A stretch of 63,058 nucleotides of DNA, the filler included, from Rhabdomonas costata (Eukaryota), in the NCBI GenBank assembly GCA_019059605.1. It is 52 parts of 52 records of this genome, joined end to end, with 100 filler letters (N's around TTAATTAATTAA, not from the genome) between each part and the next. Parts side by side here need not be neighbours in the genome. Positions count along the whole stretch, not along the records: positions 41,306 to 42,419 come from JAHMHO010027884.1; 51 more parts are not named here. One strand, written 5' to 3'. The notes under the pieces were generated by a model. It was not told where the DNA came from and ran no database searches. It was given only the letters and a program-made list of their open reading frames with translations. Both the position numbers and the translations under genes were made by a program. This document shows, one piece after another, positions 1,938-52,668 of this stretch; the first letter of the stretch is position 1, and each line of letters begins with the position of its first letter.

Positions 1938-3709
1938 CTGGGGTGGCAGAAGAGGAGAGGCAACACAAACCATCTTCACAGCTTGAGTCAGAAGCAAGGT
2001 CTTTGAATTATTACTCATTACGACTCATGGTTTACGAAGGTTGCATAAGTTTTTTGATACATCCCAAATACAAACGAACTATCGACCCCAAGTTTGGCAG
2101 TAACGCCGCTAATTTGCCTGTAAACTGGGTGGCGCGAGCAATGCTAGAATAGAATGTTAGAATCACGACAATTCTTGCAAGTCATTTTCTTATGAGGTAA
2201 ACAAGTCCTCCTTCCACGTTCTGGTCGTGAACAGGTGAACCTCTCTTGAGGCTCACATCAACAAACTTGACAAGGCAGTTTCTAACTAAAATGTAGGTAG
2301 TTGGGTGTTCACAGTCTCGCGCCACACAACNNNNNNNNNNNNNNNNNNNNNNNNNNNNNNNNNNNNNNNNNNNNTTAATTAATTAANNNNNNNNNNNNNN
2401 NNNNNNNNNNNNNNNNNNNNNNNNNNNNNNTTTTGGGGGTAGGCTTCCCGGCTAGCGGTCACAAAATCATTCTTCTCGCGCCCGCGCTAAGCTCCAACCC
2501 CCGCAAAACGCCCCGGAAAACGGGTCACAGCCGCAGGGTGTGGTTTTCGATAAGCCTGCTCTTCAACCTTCTTGCATACGGGCCAGGACAAGTGAATTTG
2601 TGACCGCTAGCCGGGAAGCCTACCCTCAAAATGTACAAGCAGCGCCAGTCATCGCCATCACCGACTTCAAGAATAAGCATAACTTCCTGGTACATTTCTG
2701 TCTTTGCTATCAACTACATCTGCATCTGTCACTGCGACAGGCAAGTGGCGGACCATGCAAATTATGCTGAGAGTGTTCTCAACAGCACTGGTGCGAGTGG
2801 AACTCACTTACAGACCTCGTTCACTGCGTCGACCAAAACGACATAGTCCGGAGACGCAGCCGAAGCCTCCGCCTGGGGGTTTGGGGTAGCAACTGGTGTC
2901 ATGACAGAGGCTTTCACAGACTCAGCCAAGGGCTCCGGAGGAGCAACTGCCCCTTTCGCTGCAGCAAGGTTGGCAGCAGTTACCGCGGCTCGGGTCACAG
3001 TGGTAGCGAAGATGGCACTCCTCTATCAAGAACACAGCACAAAAAGTACAACAATAAAGAGAGCGCGCACGATAGCAATCAACGACGCCGAACCTTCCGG
3101 ACTGAATTCTGGAAGGGCGGATAAAGGCTAACCATGACATAACAAGCAAAAGCACTGATGAGCCACCTCCAACCTCAAAGCCTCAGTATGCACGGTTCTG
3201 GAGAAGCAGTTGCCTCCGCCTTCTTTCTGGGAGTTTCAAAGCGAAGAAGAGAAGAAGAAGAAGAGTTTACCCGGCGATCACACCAAATATTACTCGGGCT
3301 GCGTGTTGGCTTGGGCACGAAGCGCGCTGGTGGTTGCCTGACCGCTTGTTGGTGACAACTGTGAACTCTCAGGGGAGACACTCAAGAACACAGACACGCA
3401 CTGGGACAAGAGTGCGAAGGCGATGCACCTACGCACTGGGACCCCGCCCGATCATAAGTGCTGCGCTGGGGGGGCCCTACTTAGAAATAAGATACGACGT
3501 CCAAAATAATAAGCCACACACCTGGCGGCATTTCTCCCAACAACANNNNNNNNNNNNNNNNNNNNNNNNNNNNNNNNNNNNNNNNNNNNTTAATTAATTA
3601 ANNNNNNNNNNNNNNNNNNNNNNNNNNNNNNNNNNNNNNNNNNNNTAAAGTTTTTCAGTCACACTGTACCCAGCGTGCAGTGATTCGCGCGAGCCCCAGC
3701 CAGTTGGGG

Positions 3710-4580
3710 TCAAGTCCTCGACCCGTGCGGGGCTGGAGAGGAGGAGGACCGCGCAGTTTTGCCCCCAACCAACTGTTGATCAACCTCACCCAGGCACTGC
3801 TCCATAAACAGTAGCATGCTGTTGAGCTCCTCCGCTCGCCGAAGCCCTGCAGCGATGTCAATCGGCACACCCTGGTCGCCGCTATGCTGAGCTTTCTGAG
3901 TGAACAGAACAGAAGGAGGGATTTGTCCATATATGCACATCTGAGCAGTCGGGGGGATGGGGGGCCTATGCATCATCATGCGGTGAGCAACTAACTCAGA
4001 CTTATCCCAAAACAGCACGGCAACCTGGATACTTCCGGCAGGTTAAAGTGTTAACACCACATGGAGAAGCTCATTATTCCCATGATGTATCATGTGCATG
4101 CGCTGTGTGGCGTGTGCATGCGCTTGCTTTGGCAACTTCTGACCACCTTGTGCGTGTTTGTGTAAGGGGGCAAAAGTTTGGTGAAGTTACTGGCACGAAA
4201 CCCTCCCCCAGGAAAACAACCATCACCACTGAAACGTTCTTCTCATGGAATGCTACGGCGTATTCAAACAACAGCTCGCCGGTCGGAAGACTGACTGCAT
4301 ATTTTCTGGTCCCATCTCACAAAAAGGAAATTACCTGCACAAGCTTCGTCAGTGCTTTCAAGTGGTAATGCTGGGTGTCCCCCAGCAAGGCCCTGGCGAC
4401 CGCAAAAAGGGGCTCACGGCCCAGCTGGGTGGCGTCTGGAGAGACCGAGACTTCGGCCACGGAGGCCAGCAGGGCGAAGTCGGTGGGGAAGCCCCGCACT
4501 ATGTCATGCACAAGTTCCGGGGTGAGCTCCTCCCGAGAGAGCTTCCGGAGCACCCGGTCACAGGCAGCGGAGAGCCGAAG
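3710..4580 (-). CDS. Hypothetical protein, last two exons (~4580-4335, 3940-3710)
   Basis: GC-rich helical-looking frame ending KLVQ|gtaatt, in phase with ctcag|ATGTGC exon running to a stop; no family recognised. Confidence 0.45.
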
Positions 4581-5090
4581 TCTGGAAGAAGGGGAACGAA
4601 GAAAGTGAGTGAGAGCTTGTGAGCTGATGTACCCGAAGGATGACTACTGACGGCGGGCTCTGCTATCGTTGGGCCTCCATGGCTGCCTCTCTTTCGCAGT
4701 GGATGTCGGCCGCAAATTCTCTTCGGTGCTGCAGCCATTCTTCGCGATGCAAAAACGTGANNNNNNNNNNNNNNNNNNNNNNNNNNNNNNNNNNNNNNNN
4801 NNNNTTAATTAATTAANNNNNNNNNNNNNNNNNNNNNNNNNNNNNNNNNNNNNNNNNNNNGGTTGTGTGTGTGTCGTTTGTCCTCAAAATGTCCCAACCG
4901 AAAAAAAAGCTGATTTTACCTGTACGTGTACCGCTAACCCTCTAACCTGTCGTCCCATGACCTCTCTCATGCGCTGGCCCACCATTGAATCAGTCGCATG
5001 ACTGGCGAAGGCAGCTTTCAAGATGAATAGCTGACCCAACAATATGTTCGCCCTGTCTTCGTCTTTGTTCTGCTTCTGTTCTTTCGTCAG

Positions 5091-25395: not shown

Positions 25396-26744
25396 AAAAA
25401 ACNNNNNNNNNNNNNNNNNNNNNNNNNNNNNNNNNNNNNNNNNNNNTTAATTAATTAANNNNNNNNNNNNNNNNNNNNNNNNNNNNNNNNNNNNNNNNNN
25501 NNTTGGGTAACGAGTATGACACGCTTCCGAAACCTTGGGCTTGGGGCTGTTGGCTTGTAATGCGGTGGGTGGTGCGTTGAGTTCGGCGGATAATGTGGGG
25601 TGGTGGGCTATGCGTTCCTTGGGTTAGTGCTGTTTGTTGCCTTCCTTGTCCCGCTTTTCCTCTCCGTTTCTCGATTGCATGGTTCATGGTGTGGGTGTTC
25701 ATGTGTGCGTGTCCTACTCCTGGTGCGTGTGAAAGGTCCCTTACTATCCGGCTTTGCATTCTCAAGTTCCAATCGGACCGCTTGGCATCACCGTTACCCA
25801 GTTGTGTGTAAATTCGGTTGTTTGGTTTGGTTAAGGTTCCGTGTGTTCGCGTGTGGGTGTGGGGGTTGATATGGAGTTGATGGTGTTGGCCTTTAATTTG
25901 TATGCGTGTGTTGTATAGGTATAGGTGCAGGGTATGGTGTCTGCTGTTGGGTTATGTTGTAGCGTTGGCTGTAGCGTCGGTGTTGGCCGTAGGAATAAGG
26001 GCAGGTGTTGGTGTCGGAGTCTGTGTCGTGGTTGTTGGGTCGTATGGTGTCGTCAACCATGCCGTCTCTGTGTCAACACTGCCATCTCTGTGTCCTTGGT
26101 TCCTGTTATGTTGCGTTGGGTGTGTGGTTCTCTCTGTAGCGTTGGGTTAGTGGTTGGTGCTACGGGTGATGTGGTTGTTGGTTCGGAGCGGAGAGTAGAG
26201 TTGGCAAAACCGACAGCGTGCTAACAGGTGCAACGGGACCGAACTGCAATACGCAGCAGCTGAAGCAAAGAAGCACAAAAGGGCCGAATCTAAGATAGGG
26301 AGGCTTCTAAGAGAGGCGCGCTGGCAGAAGAATGAAACAGGCGCACGGAGGCGCAGGGAAGAGCAGATAGAGCACAATAGAGGGTGCTTGTTGGGAGAAA
26401 AAAAGAAAGGAGTGGAGGACGCAGGTCTCGTGCCAAGACGCGGGCGGCGAGAAAAGGCCAAATCCCACCACAGAAACGCACGTGGAGAACACACACATAA
26501 TCCGGAAAGACGAATACCACAAAAACAGGCACGCCAGGAGGGTATAACAGCTTTTACAAGGGGGGCTCACGCCCGAAAACAATGCGCAAGGCGGCCGTGG
26601 GTAAAAACAAAAACACANNNNNNNNNNNNNNNNNNNNNNNNNNNNNNNNNNNNNNNNNNNNTTAATTAATTAANNNNNNNNNNNNNNNNNNNNNNNNNNN
26701 NNNNNNNNNNNNNNNNNGTGGTGGGTGTGTGTGGGGTGGTGGTG

Positions 26745-41305: not shown

Positions 41306-42419
41306 CACAGTGCACAAGTCGAGAAAAGGAAGAACAAAGTACATCCACTTGATGGGAACGATGCAGGAGAGTGGTCCCCTGCGAAAGGGAAAAGCGACGC
41401 CCGTCGCATAAAAAAACGAGGGCAGCGGAAGGTAATTCACCGGCTTCGCGCTGGTGATCACCACACTGAGGCTAGCGGGCCAAGCTGCGGAACGGCCTGG
41501 CACCGGGATGACCAGAGCGAGAAGGGCCACAAAGAAAAAAACCATTCGCTGTTGAGGGAAATGTGCAGAACATAAACAGAGCAGACAGAAGTTCAAGTGA
41601 CTTGCTACTATTACTACTATTACTACTATTATACCAAACCAGATCAATGGCAGAAACGCTTTACACGGGGATATCAACTTTGACAAATTTATGAGGCAAA
41701 CCGTTTTCCAGAGACAGTGCTACGGTGGACAGGTGCCAGGGCACATTTTGGTGCCGTATGTATGACCTAAGGTCTCCGGTCTCCGGACCATGGCTAAGAA
41801 CAGCGCCTGCTGTTGATAAACCGGTGCGAAGCACTAGGAAACCACCTCCATGGAATAATTTTTCATTTTTGGGGGAACCTACATTTATCGCATATGTCAG
41901 AACACGTTATCTCGCTAATATAAAAGGTAATGGGGTGGTTAGTTTGCTGCAAAGACACTGCAAAGTCATAAAGGGTCTAATAGTGTCCTCGTAAACTAAA
42001 CGCCCCATTTCCCATTGCATCCGCAACATTCACAACTGCTTAGCGCGCGCGTCGTTGAAGCGTAATTCAGGGATTCACACGCCCTGGTTCGGCCTTGACT
42101 TCAGTGATCCAGCCCTTTCCCATTGAAAGGGAAAACGCACTGCACTGGGCAGCTTTGAGTGAGGCCGAATCTGTTGGTTAGAGCTGCCCCTGTCTGCACG
42201 CACATCGGACGGGAAACAGTAAGGTTCTTAGGGAAAGGGGAAGAAACCTAACGAGTAACCGTTGAGCACGCTCCCGAAAATTAGTCATTCGCCACAGTGC
42301 ACAAGTCGAGAAAAGGAAGAACAAAGTACATCCACTTGATGGGAACGATGCAGGAGAGTGGTCCCCTGCGAAAGGGAAAAGCGACGCCCGTCGCATAAAA
42401 AAACGAGGGCAGCGGAAGG
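41306..42419. other. 987-nt circular or tandem unit with exact 127-nt terminal direct repeat; highly structured, no recognisable gene
   Basis: 41306-41432 is identical to 42293-42419; no G/T or A/C primer-type ends; many complementary segments about one axis. Confidence 0.9.
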
Positions 42420-44618: not shown

Positions 44619-45042
44619 GTCTGCTTTAACCATCATCTAAATGAGTTGTTTGTGCCATTTTCCTCTCCCCCTCCGCCCCGACCACCTTGAGCAGACAGGT
44701 TGCGCGAGAGTAGAACGACCTTTCCTGCTTTGCGTAGTGGCTCTTCGACGCATTTAATCTTTTTTCACTGGACTTGTGTGTTATTGGTTCTTTTTTCACT
44801 CAATTTTTTATAATACGCAACATACCCCAACCCCCAAACACACCCACCACNNNNNNNNNNNNNNNNNNNNNNNNNNNNNNNNNNNNNNNNNNNNTTAATT
44901 AATTAANNNNNNNNNNNNNNNNNNNNNNNNNNNNNNNNNNNNNNNNNNNNTGTGATTTCTGCACGCGAGTGTAAATACCAAGCTGGTGTTCGTTGCTTTC
45001 TTGTCTGTGTTGACCCACCGACGTTTCTCTCGGCGTGGTTAG

Positions 45043-45774
45043 GGAAATCCTGTGGGGCGACGCAATTAAGCCCTCCCGCTACAACATTCGGATGCGGGAG
45101 GACGTTACTTGCCAGAAGCTGTGCGTGACGAAGCCCAAGAAAGAGAACGTGGTGCGTCCTGCGGCCTGGCACTGCCATAAGCACTTTGCATTCGCAGTTT
45201 TTGGAGCTCAACCAATGAGGTCTCGAGCCGAATAATGTCGGATAAGTTTGCCCGAAGGGTTTCCTGACTCGCGTGAAAAGAGGTCTTAAACATTTCAATG
45301 ATGTGCTGGCCGTGGTTTCTTTAAGAAACTGCTGTTTTGTCAGAAAGCAGGGGAAAAATTTCGAGGCCAACGTTCAAAGTTCTAGGGCAGCGCAAAAGGG
45401 CGGGCGGGAGGGCTGCGGATGTGTCGGCACAAAAATTGCTGCTCCGAGAAAACCATAGTTTTGGTATAATGCGATGCATCGATGTTGTTGTTGTTGCCTT
45501 TCTTCGTTTCTATCATGAGTTGGTTGGTTGGTTTCAGGACCGCAAGACGGGCGTTTCGAAGACCCTGAAGAAGTTCAAGCGCCGCATCGACGATGAGTAC
45601 CGGGCTCACTTCATCCTGGACAACCTCCCCGTGAGCGAGGTGTTCATCTGGGAGGGCAGCGCGAGGGGGCTGTTCTATCGCCGCGGGTTCCCCCTGGGCA
45701 CCCCAGCGAACAAGAGCCACCCCACGATGGTCAACAACCACCTCGCTTTCACCATTAAGTACCACAAGCCAGAG
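45043..45774 (+). CDS. Transmembrane 9 superfamily (EMP70/nonaspanin) lumenal domain, exons 45043-45151 and 45538-45774
   Basis: GEILWGDAIKPSRY...CQKLC, IDDEYRAHFILDNLPV, GFPLG, NNHLAFTIKYH. Confidence 0.92.
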
Positions 45775-46818
45775 GTAGTGCCTTTCCACTTCCACTTTGG
45801 AGGCGCCCATCCATCGACACTCAAGCTCACCCATATTGACGATAGTGTGGGACAGGTGGTTTCGCGAATGTTCACACCTTTTCAAAAGTTCACCTGCACA
45901 TTCTCGTCGCACACGACGAATCTCCACAGACACACCTTAGGAGCACTCGGATAACTAACAAGTCTGAGGAGGACGACTATTCCGAGACTTGAACTTGGAC
46001 AGGTGCTAGCATGACCCACACTCGGCCATCGCGAAGGCGTGTACACAACCAAACACACCCCACANNNNNNNNNNNNNNNNNNNNNNNNNNNNNNNNNNNN
46101 NNNNNNNNTTAATTAATTAANNNNNNNNNNNNNNNNNNNNNNNNNNNNNNNNNNNNNNNNNNNNGGGTTGGTGGAGTTCTCCGAGAGCCGCCTTCCCAGT
46201 GCTCCAAATGTGGCTCTGAGCTGAAGGCCAGTGTGCACAGGGGCAAGCCTGGCCTGGTGTACTGGCCAGAAGTGCCTCCTTAGAGTGGAATGGATGGTCC
46301 CCTGCAGGGCTCTAAGCTGATCGTATCCTTTTATTGATCTCTCAGGGGGTTAGGAAGCGATGCACGTGTCCTAAAAAAGGTACACTGCTGAAGGTATGCC
46401 AAATGTTTATATGTACACTGAGCGTGGGTCTAACGAACATTATATGTTGACTACTTAGTGCTTAGGAGACCTTGTTACGTAAAATCTAGCGGATCGAGAG
46501 TGGGCGGGGATAAAGGCGGGATTGATTCAGAAACCGGGAACATTTCTTTACCATTTCTCTTACCTAGTGCCACACATAAAATGATGCGCTTTCCCTGTTT
46601 CAGGTGGTGGAATAATAGCAGTGTATAAGGTGCTCTGTTCTGATTTCCTGCTTGGCTCAAAAACAGCCCTGCACCAAGCGGCATCCATGACATACCAAAA
46701 GTACGCCGTGCGCCGCAACCCGATTACAACCCGCAACACCCAAGCTAGTGGTTGGCAACTTCTACAGAAAGAAGGATTGTGGCATTCATTTAATGTGAGT
46801 GGTGGCGGGGTACGGCAG

Positions 46819-48689: not shown

Positions 48690-49706
48690 CAAGTGCTTTC
48701 ATTACTGCAAACTCAACCTGATTTCTTCTCACACTCAACCAGGTCAGTGCTTGGGGAAGAACGAGGAGGCTAGAAGTGCTTGCATCCCCGCATCGCCGAT
48801 CCGATTGTCGGACACATCCAAGCAGGTCAGGCAGGAGAAAAAGGAGGAAGCTGCCAATGCTTGCATTCCCACATCGTCGACTTTATTGTTGGACAGGTAC
48901 AGGCATGAAAGCTTGCGAAAGAAAGGCGAAGCTGAGAGAGCTTGCACTCCCTCTGACCCGAGTAGATTGCAGGCCATAGCCAAGCAGGTGAGGTTGGGGA
49001 AGAAGGAGGAAGCTGAGAGTGCTCGCATTCCCACGTCGTCGATATGACAGCAGTTCACATCCAAGGAAGTCAGGTTGGGGAAGCAACAGGAAGCTGCAAG
49101 GACTTGCATTCCTCATCGCCGATCGGACAGCAGCTCACATCGAAGGAGGTGAGGTTGCGAAAGAAGGAGGAAGGTGCAAGTGCTTGCATTCCAGCAATCC
49201 CGATATAACAGTTGTTCCCGACATCCAAGTAGGTAAGGTTTGGAAAGAGCGAGGACCGCGAGGGCGCTTCCACTCCCGCGTCGCCGAGCTGGTTGTCGTT
49301 CACATTCAAAGAGGTAAGGTTAGAGAAAAAGGAGCATTCTGCAAGAGCTTGCATTTCCTCATCTCCGATCGAGTTCCGTTCGACATCCAGAGATCTGAGG
49401 TTGGGAAATAAGCAAGCAGAGTGCGCATCCATTTCCGCACCGAGCCCAAGCAAGTGTCCAAAGAGCATCCTGCTTTTCACTGAAATCACCGCGGCGGAGC
49501 AAGCCAGCCGCAAGCACTGAGACGCGATTTGCCCATCCGTGAGGTCTTTCAGGGACCTGAGGTTGAGCACCATCTTCCACTCGGGGGTAAGATTCTCATC
49601 AACCAGCTCTCGAAACAGCTTGCAAACCAGCCGCAGGCAGAGATGCGGAGTTAGCCTCAAAAACCGAACGATGCAGGTCAATACGTCCTCGGAAAGGGAT
49701 AGGGAG
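48690..49706 (-). pseudogene. F-box + RNI-like LRR protein, intronless, two frameshifts (~49110, ~48745)
   Basis: LSEDVLTCIVRFL...LRLVCKLFRELV F-box; about nine 28-aa repeats FPNLTSLDVxxNxIGDxGMQALA; the repeat register continues across the frame changes. Confidence 0.85.
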
Positions 49707-49892
49707 NNNNNNNNNNNNNNNNNNNNNNNNNNNNNNNNNNNNNNNNNNNNTTAATTAATTAANNNNNNNNNNNNNNNNNNNNNNNNNNNNNNNNNNNNNN
49801 NNNNNNGTTTTTGTGGACACCACCTATCATTATTTAAATTGTTTAACTGTATTTCAAATTGATGATTGCACTTATTACATAAAAACCAAAAT

Positions 49893-50848
49893 AATTTATT
49901 GGAGCAGTAAAAATAATGTAACGCCAAGAGAAATTTTTTCATTTTCTAATAAGTTATTTTGGTTTTTATGTAATAAGTGCAATCATCAATTTGAAATACA
50001 GTTAAACAATTTAAATAATGATAGGTGGTGTCCATATTGCGCAAATCCACCTAAAAAGTTGTGCGATGATGCAAATTGTATGTTATGCTTTAACAAATCA
50101 TTTGCTTCTCATGAAAAATCTATTTATTGGAGTAATAAAAATAATATAACACCTAGAAAAGTATTTAAATGTTCTGGAAAAAAATATTTCTTTGATTGTG
50201 ATAAGTGTAAACATTCATTTGAGATAAAATTAGATAACTTAAATAAAGGTTTTTTTTGTGTTTATTGTTGTGATACTAAAACAGTTATTTTGTGTGATAA
50301 CAATGATTGTGTATATTGTTTTGACAAATCATTCGCATCATGTGATAAAGCTAAATACTGGAGTAATAAAAATAAAATAATTCCAAGAAAAGTAGCCAAG
50401 AATTCAAATGATAATTATATATTTAACTGTGATATCTGTAAACATGAATTTACATCTAAACTCAGTCATATCAATAATGATGTATGGTGTCCTACTGTTC
50501 TGTTCCAACTAAAAAAATTTGTAATGATGAAAAATGTAAAAATTGTTTTAACAAATCATTTGCATCATGTTATCAATCCAGATATTGGAGTAATAAAAAT
50601 AAAATTACACCGCGACAAGTTATTAAAGGTAGTGGAAATAAATATTTGTTCATTTGCAATAAATGTAAGAATGAATTTGAAAAGAGTTTAGATCATATTA
50701 GTGGTAAAAGGAATTCATGGTGTCCAATTTGTATACACAAAACAGAATTAAAACTATACAACAATTTAATAAAGATATATCCAAATTTAAAACATAATTA
50801 CAAATTTGAGTGGTGTAAAAAAATTAACTGTTTACCTTTTGATATATC
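49893..50848 (+). CDS. Tandem zinc-ribbon protein with C-terminal restriction-endonuclease-like domain, giant-virus type; frameshift ~50490
   Basis: Four repeats WSNKNxITPRxV...YxFxCxxCxHxF...WCPxC...LCxxxxCxxCFNKSFAS, then CPICIHKTELKLY...FEWCK...LPFDI; very AT-rich, intronless. Confidence 0.8.
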
Positions 50849-52668
50849 TTTATTAAATTGTTGTATAGTTTTAATTCTGTTTTGTGTATACAAATTGGAC
50901 ACCATGAATTCCTTTTACCANNNNNNNNNNNNNNNNNNNNNNNNNNNNNNNNNNNNNNNNNNNNTTAATTAATTAANNNNNNNNNNNNNNNNNNNNNNNN
51001 NNNNNNNNNNNNNNNNNNNNGGGGGTGGGGGTCCTGCGGAGGGTACAGGGGCAACGATAAAGTATCTGAGCACATGCCCACCCACCCTCACCTCTTCTCT
51101 CAACATACAAGCATACATCCGGGGCCAAAATCACAATCGAAACTAAGCAGTGGACACAGAAGAGCAACACGTCGGAAGCAAAGCAAAAGAAAAGAACAGT
51201 GACCAAAAGTAAACACCTCTGTCAGTGTTAAAACGTCCCATCCTGTTAAATCACACATCTCGGAGCAAACAACTGACAGCAACTCGCATCACCCACAGCT
51301 CCAGTCAAGGTGCAAACGACAGCGCTTTGTACAATTCCAAACTTATGAAAGAACCCGACCGAGAACAACACGCTTAAGCTTTACAGGAGGCAGAAATAGA
51401 AAGAGCCAAAGCACACCTGCGCTCGGGCAACCACGTACATCCACTCCTGCAACAAAAAAGGCGGGAAAGGTCCTATGCCTCTCCGACTCGAAAACTAAGA
51501 GAAGGCAGAGAAACCTTTCCGAAAAATCATTGTCAATCATGCCCATGGCTGCGGAAAACGATTTCACATTGAACCCAAAGAGAGCTGGCTGTAGGCCAAG
51601 GTTCAACCAAAAACACAGAGTGACGTATGACGCGAATTGATCTATGACCACGGCAGGTAAATAAGACTTCTCCCTAATCTGTGCATAGAATCAGCCACGG
51701 ATATAGCGCGCGCACACAGACAAAAGAGAGAAAGAACAGAATCTCCCTCTCCTGGACCAAGTCCAAATGAACTTGTTTGGAACCATCTCACCATCTTTCA
51801 GTATGGTGAAATGAGTAATATGAGTGCCCAACTTTCCATAACCCTATCACACGATCTCTGCTGCCCTTTTTCGCTCAAACTTCGAAACTTCGCGCGTGTG
51901 GGGGACCGCCCCAGTGAAACAGAGAGCGCTCAAGGCAAACAGGGGTTCCCCCATATGATACGTGATAAGTGATAAGTGTTGCTGCCCGCCGAGCAGGCAC
52001 CTCGTCGAGAGTTTGATCTCGGAGGCCTTTCAGCTCGAACACCGGCGAAAACTTCACAGTGGGAGGTGATCCTTGCCCCTCCATCGCAGCCGTATTCTCA
52101 ACAAAAGCTGCCACCTGTAGAACCCCACCCCCCCNNNNNNNNNNNNNNNNNNNNNNNNNNNNNNNNNNNNNNNNNNNNTTAATTAATTAANNNNNNNNNN
52201 NNNNNNNNNNNNNNNNNNNNNNNNNNNNNNNNNNGTTGGTGGGGTATTGGTCATCGGGGCGGCGGTGGCATTCCTCTTCTGGTGTGTGTCACGCTCTTTT
52301 GAGTGCCTGCGGCTGTGCTTCCTTGGGATGAGTGGCTTTCTGGGGACTTTCTCGAACCGCTTCATGAATGATTTTCGGGTATGGCATCCCCTTTCCTCCT
52401 CCCATTCTCTCCACTCCATCCCCACACTTCTGTTCATTTTTTCCTGTGCAACTGTACTCTTGTTATCCGCGCCAATGCTGCTGCCACAATCGTTCAATCC
52501 TGAGTCCATCCTGTATACAAAAGAATATTCATGATCGGATGGCTGTGGTTTGGGCCCCCGTCAGGTCTCCGGTCAGAATAAAGGAGACCGCACATTCCAT
52601 TAACTATTAATGAAACGTCAAGTGACTGGAGGACGGAAAAGATTTTTGGGGGAGTGGGTTATTGGTAC

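Follow-up and report, generated by a model that had tools for sequence, protein, structure and literature searches.

A non-coding 987-nt assembly cycle in Rhabdomonas costata, read as a probable head-to-tail repeat of the host genome

The locus described here is a single contig of 1114 nt (JAHMHO010027884.1), located at positions 41306-42419 of the analysed stretch of Rhabdomonas costata DNA (GCA_019059605.1). This stretch, in the following termed the window, has a length of 63,058 nt including filler and is composed of 52 separate contigs of 1104-1139 nt each, which are not strictly ordered by length and are set apart by spacers of the form N...TTAATTAATTAA...N. Comparison of the contig with itself revealed an exact repeat (repeat family D2), whereby the 127 nt at 41306-41432 are 100% identical to those at 42293-42419, with a spacing of 987 nt. 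The first-pass annotation of this DNA had reported that the first and the last 127 nt are equal and delimit a monomer of 987 nt, which is precisely what was found. A script applied to every contig identified a terminal overlap of more than 10 nt in one of the 52 contigs, this being the contig at 41306-42419 alone, and an exact terminal match of 127 nt cannot arise by chance. In widely used de Bruijn assemblers, k does not exceed 127. The contig is accordingly divided into the 987-nt unit at 41306-42292, representing one turn of the assembly cycle, and the second copy of its first 127 nt at 42293-42419, representing the k-length overlap by which the assembler marks a closed cycle and which contributes no extra sequence. 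The unit is non-coding, with a GC content of approximately 0.49-0.50, and neither subrepeats nor periodicity were found within it, as the best identity at any circular lag was 0.292 as compared to a shuffle-maximum mean of 0.295. Relatives of the unit were not found among the other 51 contigs either, where the best non-self matches extended over at most 21 nt with E values of at least 2. By eye, a 6-bp palindromic stem (GCGACG CC CGTCGC) followed by a run of seven A residues was noticed at 41394-41407, to which no function was assigned.

Around the circle, the longest stop-to-stop frames comprise 141, 99 and 98 aa, and the longest frames starting with ATG comprise approximately 80 aa, as read from the printed frames. 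Considering that the 52 contigs contain 134 open frames with a length of 110 aa or more, a frame of 141 aa is ordinary for this DNA. When 26 unit frames of at least 35 aa were searched against Pfam at E ≤ 0.1, no family was found above noise. A match to SPIN90_LRD (E 0.024) was discarded as noise, having reached 15 bits as compared to a cutoff of 27, and a match to PriX (E 0.22) was likewise rejected as noise. Reading TGA as Trp (table 4), five unit frames were searched against Pfam without any family being found. For the longest frame, which comprises 138 aa within the contig, 0 of 87 candidates scored in a word search, and exhaustive comparison by phmmer with 1.84 billion representative proteins yielded no match at E ≤ 1e-3. 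Codon log-odds were trained on six Pfam-supported host ORFs, for which values of 0.026-0.237 were obtained when each was left out in turn; the values of five unit frames were 0.029, -0.145, -0.12, -0.108 and -0.13, and the codon usage of the unit is hence non-coding-like. Under the alternative codes 4, 6 and 10 the frames grow to 172-260 aa, but no reason was found to assume such a code and the resulting frames were set aside. The 987-nt unit carries no gene.

The search with Rfam 15, carried out with both strands of the contig at 41306-42419 including the junction, gave no match at E ≤ 1, and thus neither a hammerhead, HDV-like, twister or hairpin ribozyme nor a 5S, snRNA or spliced-leader RNA is present; across the whole window, no Rfam match reached the gathering score and no tRNA was identified by ARAGORN. 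This is in line with the first-pass annotation, in which 5S, tRNA, snRNA and spliced-leader sequences had not been recognised in the unit, and it bears at the same time on the idea of a circular RNA replicon, i.e., a viroid-like cccRNA, an obelisk or a retrozyme, being the source of the contig. According to their published description, obelisks are defined by a genome-spanning rod-like fold along with an Oblin ORF and are of approximately 1 kb in size, whereby this length and the apparent circularity are the only features that the unit has in common with obelisks and viroid-like cccRNAs. A rod-like RNA fold is absent from the unit, both strands of which were predicted to fold into multibranched and shuffle-like structures (+ strand, z -1.01 with 3 of 20 shuffles being as good; - strand, z -0.85 with 4 of 20). 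Oblin proteins have a length of approximately 200 aa, which is not approached by any ORF of the unit, the longest having 141 aa. Among local structures, only an imperfect hairpin of approximately 85 nt at 41926-42012 (palindrome of 60% over 124 nt, E 8e-4) is notable, with z values of -2.69 as DNA and -2.82 as RNA. In a control, which covered 23 of the 52 contigs on the + strand at fixed grid positions, used 30 mononucleotide shuffles for each window and is therefore roughly comparable only, 140-nt windows with z ≤ -2.7 were found in 7 of the 23 neighbour contigs. The hairpin is hence ordinary for this genome and was rejected as a special feature.

A Rep-dependent circular ssDNA satellite was considered along with the RNA replicons. 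Non-coding circular ssDNA satellites are known, i.e., the deltasatellites of geminiviruses and components of nanovirus size, and the origin of Rep-dependent ssDNA replicons is a stem-loop that has the nonanucleotide NANTATTAC in its loop. The unit resembles them in its small size and in the possession of words fitting NANTATTAC: a microsatellite, (CTACTATTA)x3, is located at 41605-41631 on the + strand (TRF: period 9, 3.0 copies, 100% matches; also scored as period-3) and holds two ACTATTAC words which fit this motif and constitute two of the six motif matches of the window. However, these words are part of a 3x9-nt microsatellite rather than of the loop of a GC-rich stem, and no stem-loop was found around them, as the DNA fold of 41560-41690 (131 nt) had a z of +1.16 with 179 of 200 shuffles being at least as good; the candidate Rep-type origin was consequently rejected. 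Furthermore, the Pfam search with the 26 unit frames of at least 35 aa revealed no Rep protein, and no helper virus was found in the window. Within INPHARED, the only matches were those of this microsatellite, a low-complexity stretch of 30 nt, to A/T-rich regions of Staphylococcus phage, and they were dismissed as microsatellite noise. Three exact probes of 20-24 nt (41732-41755, 42119-42140 and 41392-41412), distributed over two scans of metagenome, three of viral (IMG/VR) and one of prokaryote genome contigs, gave no match; as diverged relatives are missed by such probes, this evidence is weak.

The nature of the library was deduced from the neighbouring contigs, for which Pfam revealed RVT_1, ERp29_N, TPR, F-box/LRR, EMP70 and HMA, i.e., ordinary eukaryotic domains. 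Most informative among these is a fragment of a TM9SF/EMP70 gene at 45014-45775, which is split over two reading frames, whereby the frame at 45014-45232 matches profile positions 25-61 and the frame at 45325-45951 matches positions 58-123. The gap of approximately 385 nt between the two matches (roughly 45152-45537) starts with GTGCGT and ends with TTTCAG, and a second donor is located near 45775; the gap is a canonical GT-AG spliceosomal intron. As this intron is retained, the contigs are understood to represent the genomic DNA, rather than the transcriptome, of a eukaryote with introns, which renders a circular RNA replicon unlikely as the source of the contig at 41306-42419. Taken together with the missing ribozyme, rod-like fold and Oblin-sized ORF, this leaves the viroid-like or obelisk origin proposed in the first-pass annotation without support, and the ssDNA satellite proposed there shares this fate, since neither a Rep protein nor a nonanucleotide stem-loop is present. 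A replicon of either kind was therefore judged to be largely refuted and is given hardly any probability.

The ends of the contigs document how the DNA was obtained. A start run of at least 8 nt consisting of G/T only is present in 34 of the 52 contigs, an end run of at least 8 nt consisting of A/C only in 39, and both together in 23. In total, 50 contigs possess a primer-like run at one end at least, with a typical length of approximately 10 nt and a maximum of 33 nt. This pattern fits the assumption that the window contigs are assembled discrete amplicons from a whole-genome amplification that presumably employed degenerate G/T primers. As counted from the run table, the two contigs having neither primer-like end are those at 41306-42419 and at 3646-4760, so the earlier statement that both ends of the former are devoid of the primer signature of most neighbours was borne out. 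Yet the cycle was broken at an arbitrary point, which by itself accounts for the lack of primer ends in the unit, and this lack hence provides no independent evidence. The contig at 3646-4760 has no terminal overlap and its sequence is otherwise unremarkable.

Amplification by degenerate primers, as documented by the primer-like ends of 50 of the 52 contigs, would also be compatible with the cycle being an artefact, namely a head-to-tail chimeric junction formed during amplification or library preparation, by which a linear amplicon was falsely closed. Incomplete clean-up of the data, as indicated by the start of another contig at 24288-24299, would fit this reading as well; the sequence found there, CTTCCGATCT, resembles the 3' terminus of an Illumina adaptor, and adaptor trimming was hence incomplete. 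However, a primer-to-primer junction, i.e., an A/C run abutting a G/T run, occurs nowhere on the cycle, and the longest G/T-only and A/C-only runs of the unit (10 and 10 nt) are shorter than the medians of 12 and 12 nt identified for the interiors of the other contigs. Moreover, a chimeric edge would usually be less frequent than the true path of the linear amplicon and would be removed by the assembler, leaving behind tips with primer ends. A chimeric closure was consequently assigned only a slim chance. Inside the other contigs, runs consisting of G/T only reach a length of 71 nt, and such long runs suggest that some of the amplicons are chimeric or concatenated.

The same graph outcome would be expected if an element, dispersed or present in two copies, carried direct terminal repeats of 127 nt or more which were collapsed during assembly; a small non-autonomous LTR/TRIM-like element or a local duplication of the R-Y-R type would be of this kind. 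The host possesses retrotransposons: an open frame of 371 aa at 26720-27832, which spans its contig (26718-27832), matches RVT_1 (E 5e-26) and, weakly, an integrase core, and is a fragment of a retrotransposon pol gene. Several polypurine tracts were furthermore noticed in the unit by reading, e.g., around 42230-42246 and 41326-41344. LTR and TRIM elements are characterised by repeats of the form TG...CA and by boundaries at which a primer-binding site and a polypurine tract are located. Against such an element, inspection by eye revealed neither a polypurine tract directly preceding TG nor a CA preceding a primer-binding site of the TGG type, and neither a second copy nor a solo repeat is present in the other 51 contigs. 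The terminal-repeat element is thus regarded as a decidedly unlikely source of the cycle.

In terms of composition, the unit is host-like. Its dinucleotide-signature distance to the host pool ranks 18th among the 52 contigs, and when a third-order Markov model of the host was applied, the unit had the fourth lowest fit of the 52, albeit continuous with the others; the foreign contig with 25% GC at 49807-50920, described below, is a clear outlier by both measures. In the unit, depletion of the dinucleotide TA is weaker (0.76) than in the host pool (0.53). Given its GC content of 50% and its host-like dinucleotide signature, the unit does not look organellar. These properties are relevant for the assumption of a genuine extrachromosomal circular DNA of approximately 987 bp, which may be an eccDNA that arose by excision from a repeat, an organellar minicircle of the 'empty' non-coding kind or a plasmid-like molecule, in each case being replicated in trans by the machinery of the host or of an organelle. 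A closed cycle lacking flanks is exactly what such a molecule would yield, and the unit shares both its size of approximately 1 kb and its closed contig with eccDNA and with the organellar minicircles of kinetoplastids and dinoflagellates, among which 'empty' non-coding minicircles are known. Its place among the only two contigs having no primer end, its being unlike any other contig of the window and its low rank in the Markov fit are consistent with this assumption too.

Minicircle systems comprise numerous classes, equal in size and with a conserved core in common, and the canonical kinetoplastid minicircle holds CSB-1 and CSB-2, in order, together with the universal 12-mer CSB-3. GGGCGT, the kinetoplastid CSB-1 hexamer, occurs three times on the minus strand of the unit, which would fit a minicircle, although approximately 0.5 occurrences of a 6-mer are expected by chance. 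The universal 12-mer GGGGTTGGTGTA is, however, absent from the unit, with three mismatches at the best site; words resembling CSB-1 and CSB-2 lie dispersed at minus-strand positions 73, 229, 308 and 911, in an order and spacing that are not canonical. Sibling circles were not found: the 51 other contigs of the window, which belong to the same length bin, have at most 21 nt in common with the unit. The unit therefore differs from organellar minicircles in having no core shared with siblings, no universal 12-mer and no recognisable gene or guide-RNA-like content, as well as in GC content and dinucleotides that are not those of an organelle. Unlike this host, kinetoplastids are not known for spliceosomal introns, and the introns of the host hence argue against a kinetoplastid host. 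Of the organellar minicircles, which had been listed among the options in the first-pass annotation, the kinetoplastid type is, on account of the missing 12-mer and the missing sibling classes, unsupported. Against a small DNA circle in general, neither a replication protein nor an origin-like signature was found, the hairpin at 41926-42012 being ordinary for this genome, and a PLSDB search in distant mode revealed no match to the unit. A small DNA circle of whichever of these origins is considered possible but unlikely. Doubtful to a still higher degree is the more specific proposal of a real, non-coding and extrachromosomal DNA circle of approximately 1 kb that behaves as a minimal replicon, either plasmid-like or of the 'empty minicircle' kind, and depends entirely on the machinery of the host, of an organelle or of a co-resident giant virus, for which the hairpin at 41926-42012 would be the only candidate cis element. 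If the circle were real, a gene-less DNA circle of 1 kb that is stably maintained in a protist-like host would represent a useful minimal system in which to study how replication and segregation are accomplished in trans; the sequence holds no indication of this.

The reading that is preferred here assumes that the unit is a non-coding head-to-tail repeat of the host nuclear genome, which was collapsed to a graph cycle, and it was judged to be the probable one, albeit not by a wide measure of confidence. Copies of the unit would lie head to tail, either in a satellite-like tandem array or at least as a tandem duplication. Reads spanning the boundary between two successive copies would turn the de Bruijn graph into a closed loop, which the assembler would print as one monomer plus the k-length overlap of 127 nt. 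The flanks would be missing on account of thin or absent coverage in a patchy, primer-bounded whole-genome amplification. Identical satellite monomers give rise to a single cycle in the de Bruijn graph and TAREAN relies on the same circular signature for the identification of satellites (PMC10760446). A tandem repeat is the simplest explanation, as the unit is non-coding and host-like, the hallmarks of a replicon are absent and the DNA was obtained in primer-bounded pieces. Accordingly, of the alternatives put forward in the first-pass annotation for the closed unit, i.e., a circular molecule or the monomer of a tandem array, the cycle as such was borne out and the tandem option is favoured, leaving aside the viroid-like RNA, the obelisk, the ssDNA satellite and the kinetoplastid-type minicircle.

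Several observations count against a tandem array of this host. Internal periodicity and higher-order structure are absent from the unit, and neither a diverged monomer nor an edge of an array was found in the other 51 contigs. Many classical satellites have monomers shorter than approximately 1 kb and are more AT-rich than a DNA with 50% GC. The elevated TA value and a Markov fit in the lowest tenth of the contigs speak against a host repeat, too. Moreover, a true circle would yield exactly the same contig as a tandem array does; the chromosomal tandem arrangement of the unit is inferred. Comparison with satellites and other tandem repeats having long monomers, as recovered from short reads in the form of graph cycles by SRF or TAREAN, revealed a k-mer-graph cycle, a non-coding sequence, a host-like composition and a monomer followed by a k-length overlap as common features. 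The unit differs from satellite DNA in having no subrepeats or higher-order structure and no match in any of the collections searched, and it is known here from one monomer cycle. Most likely, the unit therefore adds a new sequence to a class of DNA that is well known, and the feature, although real, is ordinary. In short-read assemblies of eukaryotes, 1-kb contigs that end in a k-length overlap routinely result from tandem repeats, and they are not to be counted as candidate circular replicons unless they possess a Rep gene, an origin, a ribozyme or a rod-like fold, or are backed by coverage.

Beyond the unit, the neighbouring contigs yielded some observations of their own. Word-based search with the ERp29-like ORF revealed no homologues, and a 21-mer of the dinoflagellate spliced leader has no match with up to three mismatches in the window. 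On the minus strand at 48747-49705, an F-box/LRR gene is present in two overlapping frames (49073-49705 and 48747-49112), both of which show strong LRR_6 matches, and the change of frame near 49073-49112 is explained by either a short intron or a frameshift. The contig at 49807-50920 has a GC content of 25% as compared to approximately 53% in the rest and holds an open frame of 294 aa with three stretches of the DUF4379 treble-clef zinc finger. The closest relatives in IMG/VR are six giant-virus contigs, four of which are named GVMAG, with identities of 45-51% and E values of 3e-52 to 8e-64. Like the contigs of the host, this contig starts with a 10-nt G/T primer run, and a giant virus or an inserted viral fragment was hence co-amplified with the host cell.
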